Of a stretch of DNA of 64,000 nucleotides, positions 36,643-48,014 are shown piece by piece; the stretch's first letter is position 1; every line of letters begins with the position of its first letter. This DNA is from Escherichia coli. Lineage in GTDB: Bacteria > Pseudomonadota > Gammaproteobacteria > Enterobacterales > Enterobacteriaceae. Location: the NCBI RefSeq assembly GCF_003790525.1, contig NZ_CP033635.1, one strand, 5' to 3'. The notes below the pieces were generated by a model. That model was not told where the DNA came from. It ran no database searches and saw nothing but the letters and a program-made list of their open reading frames with translations. Position numbers and translations under genes: made by a program.

Positions 36643-38478
36643 CTACTCTTCGTCGTCACCATCGACATGCGCGCGGATAAGCGCCATAAACGGTTTACCA
36701 AAGCGTTCCAGCTTGCGCATCCCAACGCCGTTAACGCTGAGCATTTCGCTGGCGGTGATCGGCATCTGTTCAGCCATCTCAATCAAGGTTGCGTCGTTAA
36801 ACACCACGTACGGCGGGACATTGCTTTCATCGGCAATCGATTTACGCAGTTTGCGTAATTTGGCGAACAGTTTGCGATCATAGTTGCCGCCGAAGGATTT
36901 CTGCATCGCTTTCGGTTTGAGCGCCACGATACGCGGCACGGCAAGTTGCAAAGAGGATTCGCCGCGCAGCACCGGACGCGCAGCCTCTGTCAGTTGTAGG
37001 GCAGAATGCTGGGCAATATTTTGCGTCACCAGGCCGAGGTGAATCAGCTGGCGGATCACGCTCACCCAATGTTCATGGCTTTTATCACGGCCCATGCCAT
37101 AGACTTTCAGTTTGTCATGACCATAGTCGCGGATACGCTGATTATTAGCACCGCGAATAACTTCCACCACATAGCCCATCCCAAACCGCTGATTCACACG
37201 ACCAATGGTGGAAAGGGCAATCTGAGCATCGGTTGAACCATCGTATTGTTTCGGCGGATCGAGGCAGATATCGCAGTTCCCGCACGGCTCCTGCCGCCCT
37301 TCGCCAAAGTAGTTCAGCAGCACCAGACGACGGCAAGTTTGCGCTTCGGCAAACGCGCCCATCGCATTGAGTTTATGGCGCTCGATATCCTGCAATTGCC
37401 CCTGCGGCTTCTCTTCCAGACAACGGCGTAGCCACGCCATATCGGCCGGATCGTAAAACAGCATCGCTTCCGCGGGCAGGCCATCACGCCCGGCGCGACC
37501 GGTTTCCTGATAATAGGATTCGATATTGCGCGGAATATCAAAGTGGACCACGAAGCGGACGTTAGGCTTGTTGATGCCCATGCCAAACGCCACGGTCGCC
37601 ACCACAATTTGCAGGTCATCGCGCTGAAATTTTTCCTGCACGTCGGCGCGGACATTATTTTCCAGCCCGGCATGATAGGCCGCCGCGCTAATACCCTTGC
37701 TTTGCAGGCGCGCAGCGGTGTCTTCTACTTTCGCCCGGCTGTTGCAGTAGATAATGCCGGACTTACCGCGCTGTTCCTGCACGTAGCGCATCAACTGATC
37801 GAGCGGTTTGAACTTCTCCATCAGCATGTAGCGAATATTCGGACGATCAAAACTGCTGATTTGAATCAGCGGATCGTTCAGCCCCAGCAGGCGCACGATA
37901 TCCTGGCGCGTGGTGTCATCGGCTGTGGCAGTCAGCGCCATAAACGGCAGCGTCGGAAAACGCTGACGCAGCTGACCGAGGGCAGCGTATTCCGGGCGGA
38001 AATCGTGACCCCATTGGGAGATACAGTGCGCTTCATCAACGGCTAATAACACCGGATTCCAGTGCGCCAGATGCTCAAGAAAGTTATCCAGCATCAGGCG
38101 TTCCGGCGCGATATAAAGCAGGCGGATTTGCCCGGTGCGACAGCCTGTCATCACTTCAAGTTGCTGCTCGCGGGTTTGCGTCGAGTTAAGGCACACCGCC
38201 GCCACGCCGTTGGCTTGCAGTTGATCCACCTGATCTTTCATCAACGAAATCAGCGGTGAAACAACCACGGTAAGGCCGTTTAGCAATAAGGCAGGGATTT
38301 GATAGCAAAGGGATTTTCCGCCACCAGTGGGCATGACAACGAGGCAATCGCGGCCGGAAAGCACAGTGTCGATAATTTCTTCCTGGCCGGGGCGAAACTG
38401 TTGGTAGCCAAAGGTTTCTTGTAAAACCTGTTTAGCCCCGGACTCCAGATTCAACACTTCCGCCTGCGCCACATTCAC
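36643..38478 (-). CDS. recQ: ATP-dependent DNA helicase RecQ
   Basis: Helicase motifs ([18 protein letters not shown] box [18 protein letters not shown]), zinc-binding CGNCDNC, HRDC domain; exact start uncertain by a few codons. Confidence 0.95.
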
Positions 38479-38596
38479 CCCGATTGCCTGAAATAAAAAC
38501 AGGCGCTATTTTCAGCGCCTGCGCGAGAAACTGCAATGCTTTTAGTCTCTGAGAGGGTAATCCTGGATGCTGGATTCCAGATTTGCCAACCATTCA

Positions 38597-39466
38597 TCAA
38601 AACAGGTCGTTTAGCATAACTCCCACACCAACGCGGGTCTGGTTGAAGTTATAGTCGATGAGCGATTCGCCATAGCCGCTGTAAACCTGAGTATAAAGGC
38701 GCACATGTTTGGTGATCGGGTAACTTAAGCCTAACTCCGCGCCGCCGTAGCCCGTGTTCCAGTTGTACTGTCCTTTCGCACTCAACACCGCATCACCGAG
38801 GTGATAGCCGATTTTAAGCTGGTAGTAACCCATATATTTGGTGATATCCGGGTTATCGTCAGTATTACCCACCACATACCACGGCTTCACCTCTACCAGC
38901 CAGTTACCGTTTTCTGCCATCAGGCGTGTATAAAGGCGGTTCCAGCTGCGGGAGGTCGGGTCTGAACGCCCGTTAGAGTCGTGGTTATAACCCATCTCCA
39001 CATCGCGCAGCGTCCAACCTGCAAAACGGTAATCGGTGGCAAAACCGAGGAACAATTGCGGTTCGTAGTTGGTTTCACGAAACGGTGAAGACTCTTCGCT
39101 ATTGGACAGTTGCCACCAGGATTTTTGCGTGTAAGACGCACCCAATACCGAGTTCGGGCCTAAAATCCCACGCCACAGCGGAAATGCCAGGCTCAACTGA
39201 AACTTTACTTCATCCTTACGCGCATTTTCCGCCCAGTCGTAACTGGCAATCGCTTCTTTATTCAGATCGCTGGTTTGGGTGTAGATGATGTAGTTGGTGT
39301 CATAAGGATAAAGGGTGAACGGATTGTCATGCTCCTGCAGCATATTGGCGATAATACTGCCACGCACCGCTGGCGCGTCATGCACCTCTTTCACCGTTGC
39401 CTCTTGTGCATATACTGCCATAGGCAACATAAACACCGGCAACAACCAGCCCTGCAGAGTCCGCAT
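38597..39466 (-). CDS. pldA: Outer-membrane phospholipase A (OMPLA)
   Basis: 289 aa with signal peptide, beta-barrel, catalytic HDSNG motif. Confidence 0.95.
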   Translation of the reverse strand: MRTLQGWLLPVFMLPMAVYAQEATVKEVHDAPAVRGSIIANMLQEHDNPFTLYPYDTNYIIYTQTSDLNKEAIASYDWAENARKDEVKFQLSLAFPLWRGILGPNSVLGASYTQKSWWQLSNSEESSPFRETNYEPQLFLGFATDYRFAGWTLRDVEMGYNHDSNGRSDPTSRSWNRLYTRLMAENGNWLVEVKPWYVVGNTDDNPDITKYMGYYQLKIGYHLGDAVLSAKGQYNWNTGYGGAELGLSYPITKHVRLYTQVYSGYGESLIDYNFNQTRVGVGVMLNDLF

Positions 39467-39630
39467 CGCTCGTGTTCTCCGTAACGAATTATTGATAAGG
39501 TGAATATTTTTCTGCGGGCTATTTTACATACTTAACTCCATAGCCGTTAGTTATCCCTTCCTAAAGTAGAAATCAACAATAAAGAAGCATAAAATCAACA
39601 TTTCATTAACTAATGAAGTGTAAGGATGAT

Positions 39631-40098
39631 ATGTCTGCCGTACTGACCGCTGAACAAGCCCTGAAATTAGTGGGTGAGATGTTTGTTTATCACATGCCGT
39701 TTAACCGCGCATTGGGGATGGAACTGGAGCGTTACGAAAAAGAGTTCGCACAGCTGGCCTTTAAAAATCAGCCAATGATGGTGGGTAACTGGGCGCAAAG
39801 CATTTTGCACGGCGGGGTCATTGCGTCGGCGCTGGATGTCGCCGCCGGTCTGGTGTGCGTGGGAAGTACCTTAACCCGCCACGAAACCATCAGTGAAGAT
39901 GAACTACGCCAGCGGCTATCGCGGATGGGGACCATTGATCTTCGCGTCGATTATCTGCGCCCAGGCAGAGGCGAGCGTTTTACTGCTACCAGTAGCCTGT
40001 TACGTGCAGGCAATAAAGTCGCCGTCGCCCGCGTTGAATTACACAATGAAGAACAGCTTTATATTGCCAGTGCCACCGCCACCTATATGGTAGGTTGA
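39631..40098 (+). CDS. yigI: PaaI/YigI-type hotdog-fold thioesterase
   Basis: [33 protein letters not shown]... Confidence 0.85.
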
Positions 40099-40149
40099 AG
40101 ACATAAAAGCAGGTAAACTGCTGTTACCAATTAAAAATGAGTATTCCCG

Positions 40150-41040
40150 ATGGATGCAAAACAAACGCGGCAGGGCGTATTACTCGCTCTTGCCGCTTAT
40201 TTTATTTGGGGTATTGCGCCAGCGTACTTCAAGCTGATTTACTACGTGCCCGCCGATGAGATCCTGACGCATCGCGTGATCTGGTCGTTTTTCTTTATGG
40301 TGGTGCTGATGAGCATTTGCCGCCAGTGGTCCTATTTAAAAACGCTGATTCAGACGCCACAGAAAATTTTTATGCTGGCAGTCTCTGCCGTGCTGATTGG
40401 TGGCAACTGGCTACTGTTTATCTGGGCGGTGAACAATCACCATATGCTGGAAGCGAGCCTTGGTTACTTTATTAACCCACTGGTGAACATTGTGCTGGGG
40501 ATGATTTTCCTCGGCGAGCGATTCCGCCGGATGCAATGGCTGGCGGTGATTCTGGCGATATGTGGCGTGTTGGTTCAGTTGTGGACTTTTGGTTCACTGC
40601 CGATTATCGCGCTGGGGCTGGCGTTTAGTTTTGCCTTCTACGGCCTGGTACGCAAGAAGATTGCTGTTGAAGCGCAAACCGGCATGTTAATCGAAACTAT
40701 GTGGTTGCTGCCCGTGGCGGCGATTTACCTGTTTGCTATTGCCGACAGCTCAACCAGCCATATGGGGCAAAACCCGATGTCGCTGAATTTACTGCTGATC
40801 GCCGCCGGTATTGTCACTACCGTACCGCTGTTGTGTTTTACTGCGGCTGCGACACGCCTGCGTCTCTCAACGTTAGGCTTTTTTCAGTACATTGGCCCGA
40901 CGCTGATGTTCCTGCTGGCTGTGACGTTTTATGGTGAAAAACCGGGTGCCGATAAGATGGTAACCTTCGCCTTTATTTGGGTGGCGCTGGCAATTTTTGT
41001 GATGGATGCGATTTATACGCAGCGTAGAACGTCCAAATAA
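40150..41040 (+). CDS. rarD: DMT-superfamily transporter RarD
   Basis: 296 aa, 10 TM helices, MDAKQTRQGVLLALAAYFIWGIAPAYFK... Confidence 0.9.
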   Translation: MDAKQTRQGVLLALAAYFIWGIAPAYFKLIYYVPADEILTHRVIWSFFFMVVLMSICRQWSYLKTLIQTPQKIFMLAVSAVLIGGNWLLFIWAVNNHHMLEASLGYFINPLVNIVLGMIFLGERFRRMQWLAVILAICGVLVQLWTFGSLPIIALGLAFSFAFYGLVRKKIAVEAQTGMLIETMWLLPVAAIYLFAIADSSTSHMGQNPMSLNLLLIAAGIVTTVPLLCFTAAATRLRLSTLGFFQYIGPTLMFLLAVTFYGEKPGADKMVTFAFIWVALAIFVMDAIYTQRRTSK

Positions 41041-41349
41041 AAAATAAATATATTCTGAAAAAATATGCCGACTCTTGCATGAGAGTGGGCATATTGCCAT
41101 GCTGACAGGAGACTCACATAAGGAAAGGCAGAATTTCCAGACGTCGTTGTATATTTTCATTTGCTTTAATAAATTTCATTTTTGGTAAATTCAGCATTAT
41201 GTTATTAGCGATGAGCAAGACCAATCATTAACCAAGTTCTCTTCAGAATGTAATGAAAAATGTGAAGTGCATTTCTTTTTTAAAATTTTTTACCCTATTA
41301 TTTCTTATCAAATTAACATTGCCCTTAATTATAAGAAAGGAGAATATAA

Positions 41350-42198
41350 ATGAACAACATATTAGGCTCATCAATTAATATGCCCTGTACACTTTTCGAA
41401 ACTATTACTTTATTCGATGATTTTTCTGCTGATGATATGCAGTATGGGGATATGGAAGAACAAGATTTTCTCTCACTCGGCTTAAGCGACATCTCTGCAA
41501 AAGTTGATCCTTACCGCCTCATTAAATACCATTTTCCTGGGCCGAATTCTACTTATGGTGCTTTTAGTGTTCCAACTTCTGGAACAAAAATATCACAAAG
41601 TGAATGTATTGATATTTTATTTGCAGAAATGAAAGATCTGGCAAAAATGTTTTCCTTTTTTGGACAATACAAAACACTCATCCAGGATCTGATTGATCAT
41701 TTTAGATATGGAAATGGCAACAGTTTCCATAGCCAGGAATTGAACTTATCTTTTCATGAACGAATAAACAAATATGATTATAATAGCCCAATACGTGTAA
41801 TCAAAGAATGTATCGAAAATGATATTTCTTCAACACCTACGATAGGATACCGGCCTCTTCTCCTACAAAAGATTAAGACCGAATTACTTTCATCAAGACT
41901 AAATAAATTCAATGATTTTAAAGATAATTTTAATGGCATGGGAATCAGCATTCATGATATCTCAGCTCAAAAAATATCTCTTTTAAATTTTCAAAAATAT
42001 CCTATGGGCTGGAGCGCTACCATTCATTTCATAGCACAAGACCACTTTGGTTTGGATGTGACTGATATAAAAAACAAGATTTACAACAAGTATAGATTTT
42101 TTCGCATATGGTTCTTTTTACAACGGCATAAAGACTTTGCTTTCAAACCTTTTTTCACCAATTTTAACACTATCGAAAGAATCGAAAATTATCTATGA
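41350..42198 (+). CDS. Hypothetical protein, 282 aa, acidic, no signal peptide or TM segment; function unknown (toxin/effector-like candidate)
   Basis: Long ORF in AT-rich DNA with strong RBS (agaaaggagaatataaATG); stop overlaps the next start (ATGA); I recognise no family motif with confidence. Confidence 0.55.
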   Translation: MNNILGSSINMPCTLFETITLFDDFSADDMQYGDMEEQDFLSLGLSDISAKVDPYRLIKYHFPGPNSTYGAFSVPTSGTKISQSECIDILFAEMKDLAKMFSFFGQYKTLIQDLIDHFRYGNGNSFHSQELNLSFHERINKYDYNSPIRVIKECIENDISSTPTIGYRPLLLQKIKTELLSSRLNKFNDFKDNFNGMGISIHDISAQKISLLNFQKYPMGWSATIHFIAQDHFGLDVTDIKNKIYNKYRFFRIWFFLQRHKDFAFKPFFTNFNTIERIENYL

Positions 42199-42692
42199 AA
42201 AGAAAACTCCAGAAAATTATATTATATTTATTTCTTCTATGCTGCATCTATAATTTATGGACATTGCGTCCTGTACAGATTTTGTATACATACTCTGATG
42301 CTGGCAATTCAGTCTTTCTGGTCGTTGATCATCTGCCATGGACTGACAGCGATAAAATAAATTGGTATCTGAAGCATCAGAATGAAATTAAAAATCAACA
42401 CCCCCTACCAGAAGGTAGTTGGCATACCTGGTATGTTATTGATATCGGTAATGGCTTCACTGACTATAAAAAATATATCGAAGGGCCGTATGAAGATCTC
42501 TACTGTTTCCCGACGATTAAGAGCAATGATAATTGCATCGTAAAAAACTATTTAATGGTTATTAATGAATATCCTTACCGTAATACTCATTTTTTTATTG
42601 CTGATAACAATGAGTATCAACTAACCCAGGAAAATAAGATAGAGCGAGTGTTCAACCCGCATGACTTTGAAAAAGACAATTTTCAGCAATAA
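42195..42692 (+). CDS. Hypothetical membrane-anchored protein, 165 aa, single N-terminal TM helix plus Trp/Tyr-rich soluble domain (immunity-like candidate)
   Basis: N-terminal KIILYLFLLCCIYNLWTL hydrophobic segment; ATGA coupling to the upstream ORF. Confidence 0.55.
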   Translation: MKRKLQKIILYLFLLCCIYNLWTLRPVQILYTYSDAGNSVFLVVDHLPWTDSDKINWYLKHQNEIKNQHPLPEGSWHTWYVIDIGNGFTDYKKYIEGPYEDLYCFPTIKSNDNCIVKNYLMVINEYPYRNTHFFIADNNEYQLTQENKIERVFNPHDFEKDNFQQ

Positions 42693-42720
42693 GCCGGATA
42701 AAGAACAATCTTTACCCGGC
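42693..42720. terminator. Hairpin (GCCGGATAAAGA-ACAA-TCTTTACCCGGC) between the cassette and the convergent corA 3' end; probable bidirectional terminator
   Basis: 12-bp stem with one mismatch, followed by a T-rich tract. Confidence 0.5.
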
Positions 42721-42727
42721 ATTTATA

Positions 42728-43678
42728 TTACAACCAGTTCTTCCGCTTAAAGTACAGATACGGTGCCAGGCCCGCGAGGATCATAAAGATAATCGCGCCA
42801 GGGTAGCCGAAGCTCCACTTCAGTTCCGGCATAAACTCAAAGTTCATCCCGTAGCTGGAAGCGACCAGCGTCGGTGGCAGGAACACCACGGATACCACCG
42901 AGAAGATTTTGATGATGCGGTTCTGCTCGATATTGATAAAGCCCATCGCCGCCTGCATCAGGAAGTTCACCTTCTGGAACAGGGATTCGTTATGCGGCAG
43001 CAGGGATTCGATATCTCGCAGGATTTCACGCGCCTGCTCCAGTTGCCCACCCGGTAAGCGTGCTTTACGTACCAGGAAGTTGAGCGCGCGCTGGGTATCC
43101 ATCAGACACAGGCGAACTTTCCAGCCGATATCTTCCAGTTCCGCCAGCGTGGAGAGCGCCTCGTCGTACTCATCGCCCTGATGCCCTTCCATAATTACCC
43201 GGCTCAACTGCTCCAGGTCACTGTAGATATTTTCAATTTCATCCGCCAACTGTTCGATTTTGGTTTCGAACAGATCCAGCAACAGCTCGTAGGCGTTACC
43301 GTCCACCATCGACTGGCTACGGGCACGCATACGATACAGACGAAAAGCGGGCAGTTCACGCTCACGCAGAGTAAACAGACGACCATCACGAATGGTAAAT
43401 GCCACAGTGGAGTTACCGGCGTGATCTTCCGCATCTTCAAAGAAGAAGAAGGAGTGAATATGCAGGCCGTCATCGTCTTCAAAGAAACGTGCCGATGCTT
43501 CGATGTCTTCCAGTTCCGGGCGGGTTGCCAGGCTCTGGCCAAGTTCAGATTGTACGCGCAGTCGCTCGTCGTCGTCCGGTTCGACAAGATCAATCCATAC
43601 TGCATTTACAAGGGGTTGTGACTCTTCGACTTCCAGCCGGGTCAGTCGGTTATTTTCCAGTTGAAATGCGCTCAGCAT
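42728..43678 (-). CDS. corA: Mg2+/Co2+ transport protein CorA
   Basis: [22 protein letters not shown]... and C-terminal [11 protein letters not shown] (GMN motif); start chosen at MLSAFQ. Confidence 0.95.
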
Positions 43679-44047
43679 GACCGGGACTCCCAATGCTTAA
43701 AATATCGGACAGTTCGGTGGGCACACAGAAACAAATTGGGTTTCAGACCATTAAACAGCCTGACTCAGCGCGACGGGAAAAATTGAGGTCGCTGACAACC
43801 GCTAAGGCTATCAGCAAAAAGGGATAGCCTTAGGAGTTGATCCTGGATGACAGGATAGTGAGCCAGTATCTACTGGGTGTGTCCAAGGCGAATGTCCTCT
43901 TAGAGTGATCGTGCGCGCATGTTACGCCAGCAAAATTTTGCCGTCAACACGCAACAGAACACCACAGAACAATAGTTGAACTTCGCGCTTTTTGGTACTC
44001 GTCAAGGTCGCTAACAGGATAAAAAAATCCCACATCCAGGACCTATA

Positions 44048-44812
44048 ATGGCGCATCGGCTACTCATTGGTAAAGGAATGATCACCTTGAATCTCAAACG
44101 GATTTTTCTCACCTTCACCTTACTTCCCTTGTTTGCTGTTGCCGCTGATGATTGCGCACTCTCAGATCCGACGCTGACCGTACAGGCGTATACCGTTAAT
44201 CCTCAAACAGAGCGGGTGAAAATGTACTGGCAAAAAGCCAATGGCGAAGCGTGGGGAACGTTACATGCTCTGCTGGCGGATATGAATAGTCAGGGTCAGG
44301 TGCAGATGGCGATGAACGGCGGCATCTATGATGAAAGCTATGCGCCGCTCGGTTTGTACATCGAAAACGGTCAGCAGAAGGTGGCGTTAAATCTCGCTTC
44401 AGGTGAAGGGAATTTCTTTATTCGTCCTGGCGGCGTGTTTTATGTCGCGGGAGATAAAGTCGGCATCGTTCGTCTGGATGCCTTTAAAACCAGTAAAGAG
44501 ATTCAGTTTGCAGTGCAGTCAGGGCCAATGTTATTAGAAAACGGCGTAATTAATCCACGCATTCACCCGAATGTTGCCTCGCGTAAAATTCGTAACGGTG
44601 TAGGGATTAATAAACAAGGGAACGCCGTGTTTTTGTTGAGCCAGCAGGCGACAAATTTTTATGATTTTGCCTGCTATGCCAAAGCGAAACTGAACGTTGA
44701 GCAGCTGCTTTATCTTGATGGCACAATTTCACATATGTATATGAAAGGCTGGGCAATCCCGTGGCAACACTATCCTTTTGTTACCATGATTTCCGTCGAG
44801 TGGAAAGGTTAA
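44048..44812 (+). CDS. yigE: DUF2233-family periplasmic protein YigE
   Basis: 254 aa with N-terminal signal-like segment; matches my recollection of YigE. Confidence 0.8.
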   Translation: MAHRLLIGKGMITLNLKRIFLTFTLLPLFAVAADDCALSDPTLTVQAYTVNPQTERVKMYWQKANGEAWGTLHALLADMNSQGQVQMAMNGGIYDESYAPLGLYIENGQQKVALNLASGEGNFFIRPGGVFYVAGDKVGIVRLDAFKTSKEIQFAVQSGPMLLENGVINPRIHPNVASRKIRNGVGINKQGNAVFLLSQQATNFYDFACYAKAKLNVEQLLYLDGTISHMYMKGWAIPWQHYPFVTMISVEWKG

Positions 44813-44894
44813 GCATTGTACACTCGAGGAGGCCAGACAAACTGGGACTGGCTACACAGCTGGAAAATCATCAGATAAATGAAGGGAAACAAAA

Positions 44895-45797
44895 ATGAAA
44901 AAAAGGCTCGCAACGTTATTTTTATTAACGTGTCTGGGATCATCATCCGCCTATGCGGATAACGCTTTGATTTTACAAACTGATTTTAGCCTGAAAGATG
45001 GTGCCGTCTCGGCGATGAAAGGGGTCGCATTCGGCGTTGACCATAATCTTAAAATCTTTGATTTAACACACGAAATTCCACCGTATAACATCTGGGAAGG
45101 CGCTTATCGCCTGTATCAGACTGCCAGTTACTGGCCGCAAGGTTCGGTGTTTGTTAGCGTGGTCGATCCGGGCGTAGGCACTGACCGTAAATCGGTAGTG
45201 CTGAAAACCAAAAACGGTCAATACTTCGTTTCACCAGATAACGGTACGCTCACTTTGGTGGCACAAACTCTGGGTATTGATAGCGTCCGAGAAATCGACG
45301 AAAAAGCTAACCGCCTGAAAGGTTCTGAAAAGTCATATACCTTCCACGGTCGTGACGTGTATGCCTACACCGGTGCGCGTCTGGCTTCCGGGGCGATTAC
45401 GTTCGAACAGGTGGGGCCAGAGCTTCCTGCAAAAGTTGTCGAACTTTCTTATCAGAAAGCAAAAGCAACAAAAGGTGAAGTGAAGGGCAATATCCCGATT
45501 CTCGATATTCAGTACGGCAACGTCTGGAGCAATATCAGCGACGAGTTGCTGAATCAGGCAGGAATCAAACTCAACGACACGTTGTGTGTGACCATTTCCG
45601 AAGGTTCCCAGCAAAAATACGCAGGGAAAATGCCATATGTCGCAAGCTTCGGCGATGTGCCGGAAGGCCAGCCGATGGTGTATCTGAACAGCTTATTGAA
45701 TGTTTCCGTGGCGCTGAATATGGATAATTTTGCGCAGAAACATCAGGTTGCGTCTGGTGCTGACTGGAATATTGATGTGAAGAAGTGCGCTAAGTAA
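44895..45797 (+). CDS. SAM hydrolase / SAM-hydroxide adenosyltransferase-like protein (DUF62 fold) with N-terminal signal peptide
   Basis: Signal peptide MKKRLATLFLLTCLGSSSAYA; VFVSVVDPGVGTDR matches the DPGVGT motif of the fluorinase/chlorinase/SAM-hydrolase family. Confidence 0.6.
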   Translation: MKKRLATLFLLTCLGSSSAYADNALILQTDFSLKDGAVSAMKGVAFGVDHNLKIFDLTHEIPPYNIWEGAYRLYQTASYWPQGSVFVSVVDPGVGTDRKSVVLKTKNGQYFVSPDNGTLTLVAQTLGIDSVREIDEKANRLKGSEKSYTFHGRDVYAYTGARLASGAITFEQVGPELPAKVVELSYQKAKATKGEVKGNIPILDIQYGNVWSNISDELLNQAGIKLNDTLCVTISEGSQQKYAGKMPYVASFGDVPEGQPMVYLNSLLNVSVALNMDNFAQKHQVASGADWNIDVKKCAK

Positions 45798-45851
45798 GGT
45801 GCTGATGCCGAATGCGGTGTGGCGCACCGCATCCTGCAACGGAGTTGTAAA

Positions 45852-48014
45852 TTACACCGTCTCCAGTCGGGCATAAGCCGCCACCAGCCATTTAATACCC
45901 TGGCCCTGGAATGCCACCTGCAAACGGCTATGCTCGCCGCTGCCTTCCATATTGACGATGGTGCCTTCACCAAACTTAGCGTGGCGTACGCGCTGGCCGA
46001 GCTTGTAGCCGCTGTCGTTCTCGACCATCGGCGTACCCATCCGTTGATGGCTGACCGGGCGGCTTACCGTAGCGCGCAGGCGCACCTCTTCCACACACTC
46101 TTCCGGCAACTCACCGATAAAGCGCGACGGGCGATGGTAAACCTCTTTGCCATACAGACGGCGAGTTTCCGCGTAGGTCAGCGTCAGTTTCTGCATCGCG
46201 CGGGTTACGCCAACGTAGGCCAGACGGCGTTCTTCTTCCAGACGTCCGCCTTCATCCAGCGACATCTGGCTTGGGAACATGCCCTCTTCCATACCAACGA
46301 TAAACACCTGCGGGAACTCCAGGCCTTTCGCCGAGTGTAGCGTCATCAACTGCACCGCGTCCTGCCAGGTATCCGCCTGCCCCTCGCCCGCTTCCAGCGC
46401 CGCATGGGAGAGGAATGCCTGCAGCGGCATTAAATCTTCGTCTTCTTCGTTGTAGCTGAACTGGCGCGTTGCCGTCACCAGTTCCTCCAGGTTTTCGATA
46501 CGCGTCTGACCTTTTTCGCCCTTCTCCTGCTCGTACATGGTGCGCAAGCCGGAGTCTTTAATTACCCGGTCAGTCTGTACATGCAGCGGCATATCGGCAG
46601 TTTCCTGCGCTAAGGCGTCGATCAGCTCCATAAACCGCTGTAAGGCACTGGCAGCACGTCCGGCGAGGGCTTTTTCCTGCAACAGTTCACGACATGCCTG
46701 CCAGAGTGTTAACTGGCGATCACGCGATGTCTGACGTACCACGTCCAGCGTCCGGTCACCAATACCCCGCGTTGGTGTATTCACCACGCGCTCAAAGGCC
46801 GCGTCGTCATTACGGTTGGCAATCAGGCGCAGATACGAGAGCGCATCTTTGATTTCCTGGCGTTCGAAGAATCGCATCCCGCCGTAAATACGGTACGGCA
46901 TACTTGCCTGTAACAGTGCTTCTTCCAGCACACGCGACTGGGCGTTGCTGCGGTAGAGAATGGCGCACTCGGCAAGCGCCCCGCCGTTGTCCTGCCAGGT
47001 TTTGATACGGTTAACCACAAAACGCGCTTCATCGAGTTCGTTAAAAGCGCAATAGAGGGAAATAGGCTCACCATCCGCGCCATCGGTCCACAGTTTTTTA
47101 CCCAAACGCCCGTTGTTGTTTTCAATCAGGGCGTTCGCGGCGCTCAGAATATTGCTGGTAGAGCGGTAGTTCTGCTCCAGACGGATAGTTTCAGCACCGG
47201 GGAAATCATTGAGGAAACGCTGAATATTCTCCACCTGCGCTCCGCGCCAGCCGTAGATTGACTGATCGTCATCGCCAACGATCATCACTTTGCCGGTATC
47301 GCCCGCCAGCAGGCGGATCCACGCATACTGAATGTTGTTGGTATCCTGGAATTCGTCCACCAGGATATTGGTAAACCGTTCGCGATAGTGCTGAAGGATA
47401 TGCGGCTTGTTAAGCCACAACTCGTGAGCACGTAGCAGCAGCTCGGCGAAGTCCACCAGCCCCGCGCGGTCACACGCTTCCTGATACGCCTGATACACCT
47501 TCTGCCAGGTCTGCTCCACCGGATTACCGTAGCTTTGAATATGATGTGGACGCAGGCCTTCATCTTTCTGGCTGTTGATGTACCACATTGCCTGGCGCGG
47601 CGGCCACTGCTTCTCGTCGAGGTTCATCGCCTTGATTAGGCGTTTGAGCAGGCGTAGCTGGTCCTCGCTGTCGAGGATCTGAAAATCCTGCGGCAGATTG
47701 GCGTCCATATGGTGCGCACGCAGCAGACGGTGCGCCAGCCCGTGGAAGGTGCCGACCCACATGCCGCCCTGGCTGGTGCCCATCAGCTGCCCGATACGAT
47801 GACGCATCTCCGCCGCCGCTTTGTTGGTAAACGTTACCGCCATAATCGAGTATGGCGAGCAGTTTTCCACGCTCATCAGCCAGGCGATACGATGCACCAG
47901 TACGCGCGTCTTACCACTGCCCGCGCCCGCCAGCACCAGAAGGTTGCTGCGTGGCGCGGCCACCGCTTCGCGCTGTTTGTCATTAAGGCTGTCGAGCAGG
48001 TAAGAAACGTCCAT
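45852..48014 (-). CDS. uvrD: DNA helicase II UvrD
   Basis: MDVSYLLDSLNDKQREAVAAPRSNLLVLAGAGSGKTRVLVHRIAWL...; 720 aa from that start (the six-frame ORF runs 62 codons further upstream without a stop). Confidence 0.95.
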   Translation of the reverse strand: MDVSYLLDSLNDKQREAVAAPRSNLLVLAGAGSGKTRVLVHRIAWLMSVENCSPYSIMAVTFTNKAAAEMRHRIGQLMGTSQGGMWVGTFHGLAHRLLRAHHMDANLPQDFQILDSEDQLRLLKRLIKAMNLDEKQWPPRQAMWYINSQKDEGLRPHHIQSYGNPVEQTWQKVYQAYQEACDRAGLVDFAELLLRAHELWLNKPHILQHYRERFTNILVDEFQDTNNIQYAWIRLLAGDTGKVMIVGDDDQSIYGWRGAQVENIQRFLNDFPGAETIRLEQNYRSTSNILSAANALIENNNGRLGKKLWTDGADGEPISLYCAFNELDEARFVVNRIKTWQDNGGALAECAILYRSNAQSRVLEEALLQASMPYRIYGGMRFFERQEIKDALSYLRLIANRNDDAAFERVVNTPTRGIGDRTLDVVRQTSRDRQLTLWQACRELLQEKALAGRAASALQRFMELIDALAQETADMPLHVQTDRVIKDSGLRTMYEQEKGEKGQTRIENLEELVTATRQFSYNEEDEDLMPLQAFLSHAALEAGEGQADTWQDAVQLMTLHSAKGLEFPQVFIVGMEEGMFPSQMSLDEGGRLEEERRLAYVGVTRAMQKLTLTYAETRRLYGKEVYHRPSRFIGELPEECVEEVRLRATVSRPVSHQRMGTPMVENDSGYKLGQRVRHAKFGEGTIVNMEGSGEHSRLQVAFQGQGIKWLVAAYARLETV

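Follow-up and report, generated by a model that had tools for sequence, protein, structure and literature searches.

Positions 41,041 to 42,727 of a 64,000-nucleotide window of Escherichia coli DNA (contig NZ_CP033635.1; "the window" below) hold an AT-rich cassette of two open reading frames (ORFs), termed ORF1 and ORF2, located between rarD and corA. This stretch is 100% identical to that of E. coli SMS-3-5 (NC_010498.1). The cassette is very likely an orphan type VI secretion system (T6SS) effector–immunity module, belonging to the DUF3289/DUF943 family, which in SMS-3-5 probably serves mainly through the protection provided by ORF2. An initial annotation, made from the letters alone, had described the cassette as being of unknown function; the family has in fact already been described in the literature. 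The suggestion in the same annotation of an effector–immunity pair agrees with two published systems (PMC11148199, PMC12135965) and with fold matches to a solved complex.

The two proteins and their pairing

ORF1 is a full-length member of the Pfam family DUF3289 (PF11692; E 8.6e-83, model positions 2-270 of 272). The domain covers residues 10-278 of the 282 residues, and the Pfam scan gives no other family. The protein also falls within the NCBIfam “YPO3983 family” (TIGR03034), scoring 395.7 bits against a cutoff of 156.45 (E 1e-118). These profile matches, together with the Pfam match of ORF2 described below, bear out the tentative initial assignment to DUF3289/DUF943-type pairs. The RefSeq names for both genes are still “YPO3983 family” and “DUF943 family” proteins, and literature searches under YPO3983, TIGR03034, the Pfam accessions or the PDB codes found nothing relevant. 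ORF1 had been called a soluble acidic protein. The absence of any hydrophobic segment supports the first term, but with an isoelectric point of 6.1 the protein is merely mildly acidic. A structural model derived from a 39-sequence alignment has a predicted local distance difference test (pLDDT) score of 89. The invariant positions of DUF3289 comprise a QDHFGLDxxD motif followed by F251, W254, L257 and Q258.

The DUF3289 family numbers 461 representatives at E <= 1e-3. These occur either as stand-alone proteins of approximately 280 amino acids or as the C-terminal domain of proteins of 300-1300 amino acids. Among 30 long homologues, a PAAR domain is present in nine, TssD/Hcp in two and DUF4280 in one, while other long homologues carry peptidase M23, PG_binding_1, LysM, SH3, M14 or Rv2525c-like glycosidase domains. 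As the fusion partners include both PAAR/Hcp and cell-wall domains, they point to delivery by a T6SS and to a cell-wall target for the family.

The N-terminal 80 or so residues of ORF1 (residues 1-80, positions 41350-41589) have a distribution of their own. D29 and M30 are invariant within this region, and D24, G33 and D34 are almost invariant. The region is found in stand-alone and PAAR-fused enterobacterial homologues, and many of the long homologues align to ORF1 only from about residue 85. It may be a separable sub-module, for example one that binds a metal or takes part in loading or regulation.

ORF2 is a full-length DUF943 protein (PF06092; E 9.8e-28, model positions 2-150 of 151), a family for which NCBIfam has no model. 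The initial annotation was accurate in giving it a single N-terminal membrane anchor and a Trp/Tyr-rich composition: the N-terminus consists of KRK followed by a hydrophobic segment at residues 8-26, in a positive-inside arrangement, and Trp and Tyr make up 11.5% of the protein. The model, built from 60 sequences, has a pLDDT of 91 and places a helix at residues 2-23. An N-terminal hydrophobic segment is present in 129 of 149 DUF943 homologues, and Cys104 and Cys114 are invariant over 60 homologues. Because of the KRK-anchor arrangement and the two invariant cysteines, the ORF2 domain is predicted to be periplasmic and disulfide-bonded, and thus to reside in the compartment where the toxin would act.

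The models of ORF1 and ORF2 match both chains of a solved T6SS effector–immunity complex, BtpeA-CTD/BtpiA. For ORF1, the match to entries 9JDI and 9JG8 is also seen by sequence (E 1.6e-5), through the DHFGLD...FRxWFxLQ block. The link between ORF2 and BtpiA is seen by fold only, as a sequence search of ORF2 against the PDB returned nothing meaningful and did not detect BtpiA.

The pairing is conserved among relatives. In a gene-context sample of 72 loci from Enterobacterales, a DUF943 gene lies directly 3′ of 97 of the 106 full-length effector genes, and the stop/start overlaps are mostly of -11, -4 or -1 nucleotides (nt). Tandem arrays of up to seven pairs occur in 15 of the loci, and the sample also holds 28 effector fragments as well as 37 DUF943 genes that do not directly follow an effector gene. 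Judged by gene arrangement, these arrays, fragments and orphan immunity copies are the classic anatomy of polymorphic toxin–immunity loci.

Several individual loci can be described further. Arrays are found in Rosenbergiella, Tatumella, Serratia and others (loci L031, L026, L032, L023 and L076), with up to five successive DUF943 genes after one effector gene in some of them. Several genomes, such as that of Kosakonia oryziphila, have four to six separate DUF3289/DUF943 loci. At the rarD-corA site of Salmonella diarizonae (locus L054, 6067-6908), the effector is split into two tblastn segments and is likely a pseudogene. The DUF943 gene of this locus is intact, i.e., immunity appears to have been kept after loss of the effector.

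Both genes show constraint. Between the SMS-3-5 and O157:H7 alleles, the ratio of nonsynonymous to synonymous divergence (dN/dS) is 0.19 for ORF1 and 0.17 for ORF2. The synonymous divergence (dS) is 0.41 and 0.23, respectively, compared to 0.11-0.14 for rarD and corA, or two to four times that of the flanks. With dN/dS close to 0.2 and dS above that of the flanking genes, the allele comparison indicates that ORF1 and ORF2 are under purifying selection and that their alleles are older than the surrounding chromosome.

Layout, history and distribution of the locus

The GC content of the cassette stretch is 0.329, against a window mean of 0.519 (standard deviation 0.034, in windows of 1687 nt), and this is the minimum among stretches of equal size in the window. 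The sharp drop to about one-third reported at first is therefore real. It extends across ORF1 (0.329), ORF2 (0.341) and the leader at 41041-41349 (0.301), compared to 0.506 for rarD and 0.532 for corA. The remaining layout was also described correctly, with two overlapping ORFs, an AT-rich leader, a good ribosome-binding site and a hairpin between rarD and corA. The features are listed in Table 1.

Table 1. Features of the rarD-corA interval and its flanks (positions in the window unless a locus is named).
Feature	Position	Strand	Remark
rarD	40150-41040	+	upstream flank of the cassette
rarD-yigG intergenic DNA common to cassette-free E. coli	41041-41118	+	colinear with the K-12-like locus L003
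yigG 5′ remnant and deletion junction to the cassette leader	41119-41184	+	from alignment; approximate boundaries
AT-rich cassette leader	41185-41349	+	colinear with the F11 and O157 cassette leaders
ORF1, 282 aa, DUF3289 / YPO3983 family	41350-42198	+	predicted periplasm-acting antibacterial effector
ORF2, 165 aa, DUF943	42195-42692	+	predicted immunity protein, periplasmic with an inner-membrane anchor
Hairpin between convergent ORF2 and corA	42693-42720	both	likely bidirectional terminator
corA	42728-43693	-	downstream flank, convergent with ORF2
corA′ copies	L001 3410-3556; L002 2338-2484; L009 1125-1268; L011 9274-9453		absent from the window

The ribosome-binding site AAGGAG (41337-41342) is located 7 nt 5′ of the ORF1 start codon, and the two ORFs overlap by the ATGA at 42195-42198. 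On inspection of the sequence, ORF2 has no Shine–Dalgarno sequence of its own, which makes translational coupling to ORF1 plausible. The hairpin downstream of ORF2 has a 12-bp stem with folding energies of -15 kcal/mol on the plus strand (z -4.8) and -19.7 kcal/mol on the minus strand (z -5.4), relative to shuffled controls. Its stability on both strands makes it a plausible bidirectional terminator, shared with the convergent corA. A search of the 309-nt leader revealed no sigma-70-like promoter, and matches resembling promoters are at chance level across the region (7 against 7.9 expected). A scan of 38000-46000 with Rfam returned no RNA family.

There is a second hairpin directly 3′ of rarD (41062-41095; -20 kcal/mol, z -4.3), without a U tract. 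It falls inside the 84 nt common to cassette-free E. coli genomes, and the candidate roles are a rarD terminator, an RNA stabilizer or an element resembling repetitive extragenic palindromic (REP) sequences. Further along the window, a 300-amino acid ORF is present downstream of yigE (44895-45797). The gene at the matching position in related genomes is annotated as a member of the S-adenosylmethionine (SAM) hydrolase / SAM-dependent halogenase family, and in at least one strain that lacks the cassette (L003) its counterpart is a pseudogene.

The gene order in cassette-free E. coli, K-12 among them, is rarD-yigG-yigF-corA. In strain F11 it is rarD-yigG-yigF-corA′-leader-ORF1-ORF2-corA, where corA′ is an in-frame copy of the corA 3′ end (147 bp, 48 codons) that is 94-95% identical to the functional end. 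This copy lies directly 5′ of the cassette leader in F11, in O157:H7 and in locus L009. Atlantibacter subterranea (L011) has the same corA′-pair-corA layout, with a match of 60 codons to the corA 3′ end, and the order in Salmonella arizonae and Salmonella diarizonae is rarD-pair-corA. From these arrangements, it looks as if the module integrated at the corA 3′ end and the gene end was regenerated; there is no integrase present.

In O157:H7, corA′ is preceded by a different AT-rich filler with a yigG-like ORF. The filler of strain YB14-1 (L002 1366-2337) is 972 bp long with a GC content of 0.32 and occupies the place of yigG-yigF. It contains the yigG-like ORF (30% identity) and an annotated 99-amino acid membrane protein on the opposite strand. 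Given this replacement, the rarD-corA gap is a small hypervariable region beyond the cassette itself.

The SMS-3-5 locus combines the two arrangements. Positions 39600-41184 of the window align to the K-12-like locus L003 (1560-3182; approximate boundaries), the first 84 nt of the cassette stretch matching cassette-free genomes, and positions 41168-44100 align to F11 and O157 starting just past the corA′ fragment. A 38-nt deletion removes the start codon of yigG, and a second deletion joins approximately codon 29 of yigG to the cassette leader, with loss of yigF and corA′. On these alignments, the SMS-3-5 locus is a deletion derivative of a fuller cassette locus.

Horizontal acquisition, as proposed in the initial annotation, holds in part. 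The cassette is AT-rich and variably present, and the fuller loci are flanked by the duplicated corA 3′ end. However, the pair occupies the same site in S. arizonae, S. diarizonae and Atlantibacter and is almost never carried by plasmids or phages, with homologues in 8 of 72,556 plasmid records and a near absence from phages. For these reasons, the cassette looks like an old, fast-evolving resident of the rarD-corA site as opposed to a recent import. ORF1 shares 84% identity between the alleles of E. coli and 62% with the copy in Salmonella, compared to 98-100% for CorA. An origin from a mobile element was considered and, given how seldom plasmids and phages carry the module, is unlikely.

The two genes are not housekeeping genes of all E. 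coli. The cassette is present in 2647 of 5426 complete genomes (49%), in allele classes with approximately 89% to 100% DNA identity to the SMS-3-5 allele, and the remaining genomes have yigG-yigF only. An allele 100% identical to that of SMS-3-5 occurs in at least 12 genomes, and 492 have one with an identity of 99% or higher.

Mode of action and competing explanations

The proposed delivery, cell-wall target and role of the module in SMS-3-5 can be put together as follows. ORF1 has no signal peptide and would be made in the cytoplasm. T6SS-positive strains would mount it on the Hcp/VgrG/PAAR spike and deliver it by injection to the periplasm of a neighboring Gram-negative cell. ORF1 may then damage the synthesis or integrity of the cell wall, in line with the cell rounding caused by a homologue. 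ORF2 would be translated by coupling, with its N-terminal helix in the inner membrane and its disulfide-containing domain facing the periplasm, where it would bind and block toxins of the ORF1 type arriving from sister cells.

In SMS-3-5, the aspV and metV sites hold no T6SS, and NC_010498.1 has no T6SS-1 or T6SS-2 tssC by megablast or word-11 blastn, although a very divergent T6SS may escape these searches. The same searches gave no tssC match in the 11 other genomes with the identical cassette allele. The apparatus that an effector–immunity pair would require in its own genome is therefore not found in SMS-3-5. As there is no detectable T6SS-1/-2 sheath gene, this strain most likely carries the module in a disarmed state and retains it for the protection that ORF2 would offer against T6SS-positive E. 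coli with the same effector. ORF1 may be retained in part because the translation of ORF2 depends on it. Retention of immunity genes against T6SS attack is a known phenomenon. Two other features of the SMS-3-5 chromosome were noted in passing: a flagellar gene cluster at 255-275 kb (L004), near the empty aspV site, which is read as a Flag-2-type second flagellar cluster, and a second copy of amiC within the insertion sequence-rich pheV island (3227-3229 kb, L006).

Across the species, the cassette and the T6SS tend to occur together. The screen used megablast with tssC of the T6SS-1 (CFT073) and T6SS-2 (Sakai) types and found the gene in 3429 of the 5426 genomes, with the cassette or tssC in 3952. 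By inclusion–exclusion, tssC is present in 2124 and absent from 523 of the cassette carriers, and present in 1305 and absent from 1474 of the non-carriers. The gene is thus present in 80% of carriers and 47% of non-carriers; the odds ratio, uncorrected for phylogeny, is approximately 4.6. A spread sample of 60 genomes agrees, with tssC in 25 of 29 carriers and 15 of 31 non-carriers. Examples of T6SS-positive carriers are Nissle 1917 and O157:H7.

A number of points weigh against a T6SS effector–immunity module. The phylogenetic correction that the odds ratio lacks is one of these, and a very divergent T6SS could be missed by the tssC screen. About 20% of cassette-bearing E. coli are without a T6SS-1/-2 tssC. 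ORF1 carries no recognized T6SS delivery domain (PAAR, MIX, FIX, PIX or WHIX), and its mass of 33 kDa is, judged by general T6SS cargo, large in relation to the lumen of Hcp. A tblastn search with E. coli Hcp, VgrG, PAAR, TssB/C/F/G/H/K/M and Rhs found no Hcp, VgrG, PAAR or Tss core gene within 10 kb in any of the 72 loci, so that the T6SS link of the stand-alone enterobacterial copies is indirect. Clustering of all ORFs in these loci likewise revealed no recurrent accessory or delivery gene besides the pair; the next most recurrent cluster is present in at most 12 of the 72 and looks like housekeeping ABC transporters. The toxicity, secretion and immunity of this pair are extrapolated from homologues at 22-40% identity. 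Finally, a colicin-M-like mechanism for ORF1 is opposed by a profile–profile probability of 0.2% and by the absence of the DxYDx5HR motif.

Some of these points could be accommodated if the stand-alone enterobacterial DUF3289/DUF943 modules were independent of the T6SS, which is considered unlikely. They are never near T6SS genes, have no known delivery domain and occur in about one-fifth of E. coli carriers without a T6SS-1/-2 sheath gene. Such modules would either use an unrecognized delivery route or act as “immunity islets”; in the latter version, one possibility is that the intact toxin ORF is kept solely as the translational leader of the immunity gene. A further proposal is a T6SS-independent, bacteriocin-like or self-contained toxin–immunity module, in which ORF1 would leave the producing cell through lysis, in vesicles or by another route and would enter target cells by itself in the manner of colicin M, with ORF2 as the counterpart of Cmi. 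The pair is without import domains, a lysis gene or plasmid carriage, and this proposal is accordingly given a low probability.

It is also rather improbable that the cassette in SMS-3-5 is a decaying, functionless relic with neither a toxin nor an immunity role. The missing sheath gene, the deletions at the locus (truncated yigG, loss of yigF and corA′), the leader without a consensus promoter and the effector pseudogenes elsewhere, e.g., the split ORF1 of S. diarizonae, would all suit decay. Nevertheless, both ORFs are intact and of full length with a dN/dS of about 0.2 between alleles, the ribosome-binding site, coupling and terminator are preserved, and the same allele recurs in the many genomes counted above. 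The anti-phage alternative of the initial annotation, taken here as a two-gene anti-phage or abortive-infection system, or as a type II toxin–antitoxin addiction module silenced by H-NS, is very improbable. The cassette does have the generic look of a defence islet, being small, AT-rich, variably present and made up of two genes whose translation is coupled. Yet a search of both proteins against the PADLOC models gave nothing at E <= 1, PHROG gives no match, and the neighbors are housekeeping genes and not a defence island. The small partner is by prediction a periplasmic protein with a membrane anchor and a disulfide and not a cytoplasmic antitoxin, the toxicity of a homologue is periplasmic, and tandem arrays in which orphan immunity copies occur are characteristic of interbacterial toxin loci.

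With the effector–immunity reading, an “unknown” AT-rich islet within a core part of the E. coli genome that has been studied in depth becomes an annotated interbacterial-competition locus that is polymorphic across the species. This is useful for annotation and for the study of strain-level competition in the gut, where strains lacking a T6SS, SMS-3-5 being one, may retain the pair for protection. The biology involved is not of a new kind.

Comparison with known systems

The lipid II-degrading bacteriocins of the colicin M family and their immunity protein Cmi (PF14859; ColM, PaeM, syringacin M and the pectocins) are among the closest known systems. Membership of ORF1 in this family was examined and rejected, as profile–sequence and profile–profile comparisons were negative and any resemblance would be at the level of fold only. 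Alignment of the DUF3289 profile by hhalign with ColM and with a 7-sequence ColM-family profile gave probabilities of 0.2-0.3%. The invariant residues of the ColM-family alignment (D, Y, D, N, S, T, H and R) differ from those of DUF3289, in which the colicin M catalytic motif D226-x-Y228-D229-x5-H235-R236 is not found. ORF1 also has no N-terminal translocation (TonB box) or receptor-binding domain of the ColM type and no plasmid carriage. On sequence grounds, it is filed under the DUF3289 effectors and not the colicin M family. Colicin-M-like cleavage of lipid II by ORF1 can be put forward as a hypothesis by analogy, while the QDHFGLDxxD block and the D24/D29/D34 cluster of DUF3289 may instead reflect a new cell-wall-directed chemistry.

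The structural counterpart, BtpeA-CTD/BtpiA (PDB 9JDI, 9JG8 and 9JG9), comes from a different phylum, being a Bacteroides fragilis system, and its effector and immunity protein are 22% and 10% identical to ORF1 and ORF2, respectively. BtpeA (Li et al. 2025, Cell Host Microbe, cited in PMC13402684) is a 608-amino acid PAAR-type spike protein that requires the adaptor BtapC. DUF3289 is also listed among the toxin domains in published PAAR and PIX surveys, and in Klebsiella T6SS-associated groups the DUF3289 and DUF943 clusters are linked 780 times (PMC12469244).

For homologues, periplasmic toxicity, rescue by a DUF943 protein and T6SS-dependent secretion are known from published work. An orphan DUF3289 protein of Aeromonas jandaei (WP_042032936.1) has been established as a T6SS-secreted effector by secretome mass spectrometry and competition (WHIX paper 2025, PMC12135965). 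As in the E. coli cassette, its gene lies apart from the T6SS clusters with the immunity gene downstream. In contrast, its immunity protein is not a DUF943 protein but has 95 amino acids with a signal peptide plus three transmembrane helices, and the T6SS of its host is active.

The PAAR-DUF3289 protein T6EC1 of Yersinia pseudotuberculosis IP32881 is lethal to E. coli and causes rounding of the cells if directed to the periplasm, and its DUF943 neighbor T6IC1, which has an N-terminal transmembrane helix with the remainder in the periplasm, rescues the poisoned cells (Geller et al. 2024, PMC11148199). The same study noted a Foldseek similarity of T6EC1 to the colicin M-like PaeM. T6EC1/T6IC1 and the E. 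coli pair share both Pfam families, the order of effector followed by immunity gene and the topology of the immunity protein. They differ in that T6EC1 is the C-terminal domain of a PAAR protein inside a T6SS operon, whereas ORF1 consists of the bare domain (282 amino acids), is encoded at a housekeeping locus and comes from a strain in which no T6SS sheath gene is detectable. The DUF3289/DUF943 family, its periplasmic toxicity, its immunity partner and its delivery by the T6SS have thus already been published, and the history of the rarD-corA locus and the carriage of the pair by T6SS-less strains are minor additions to that picture.

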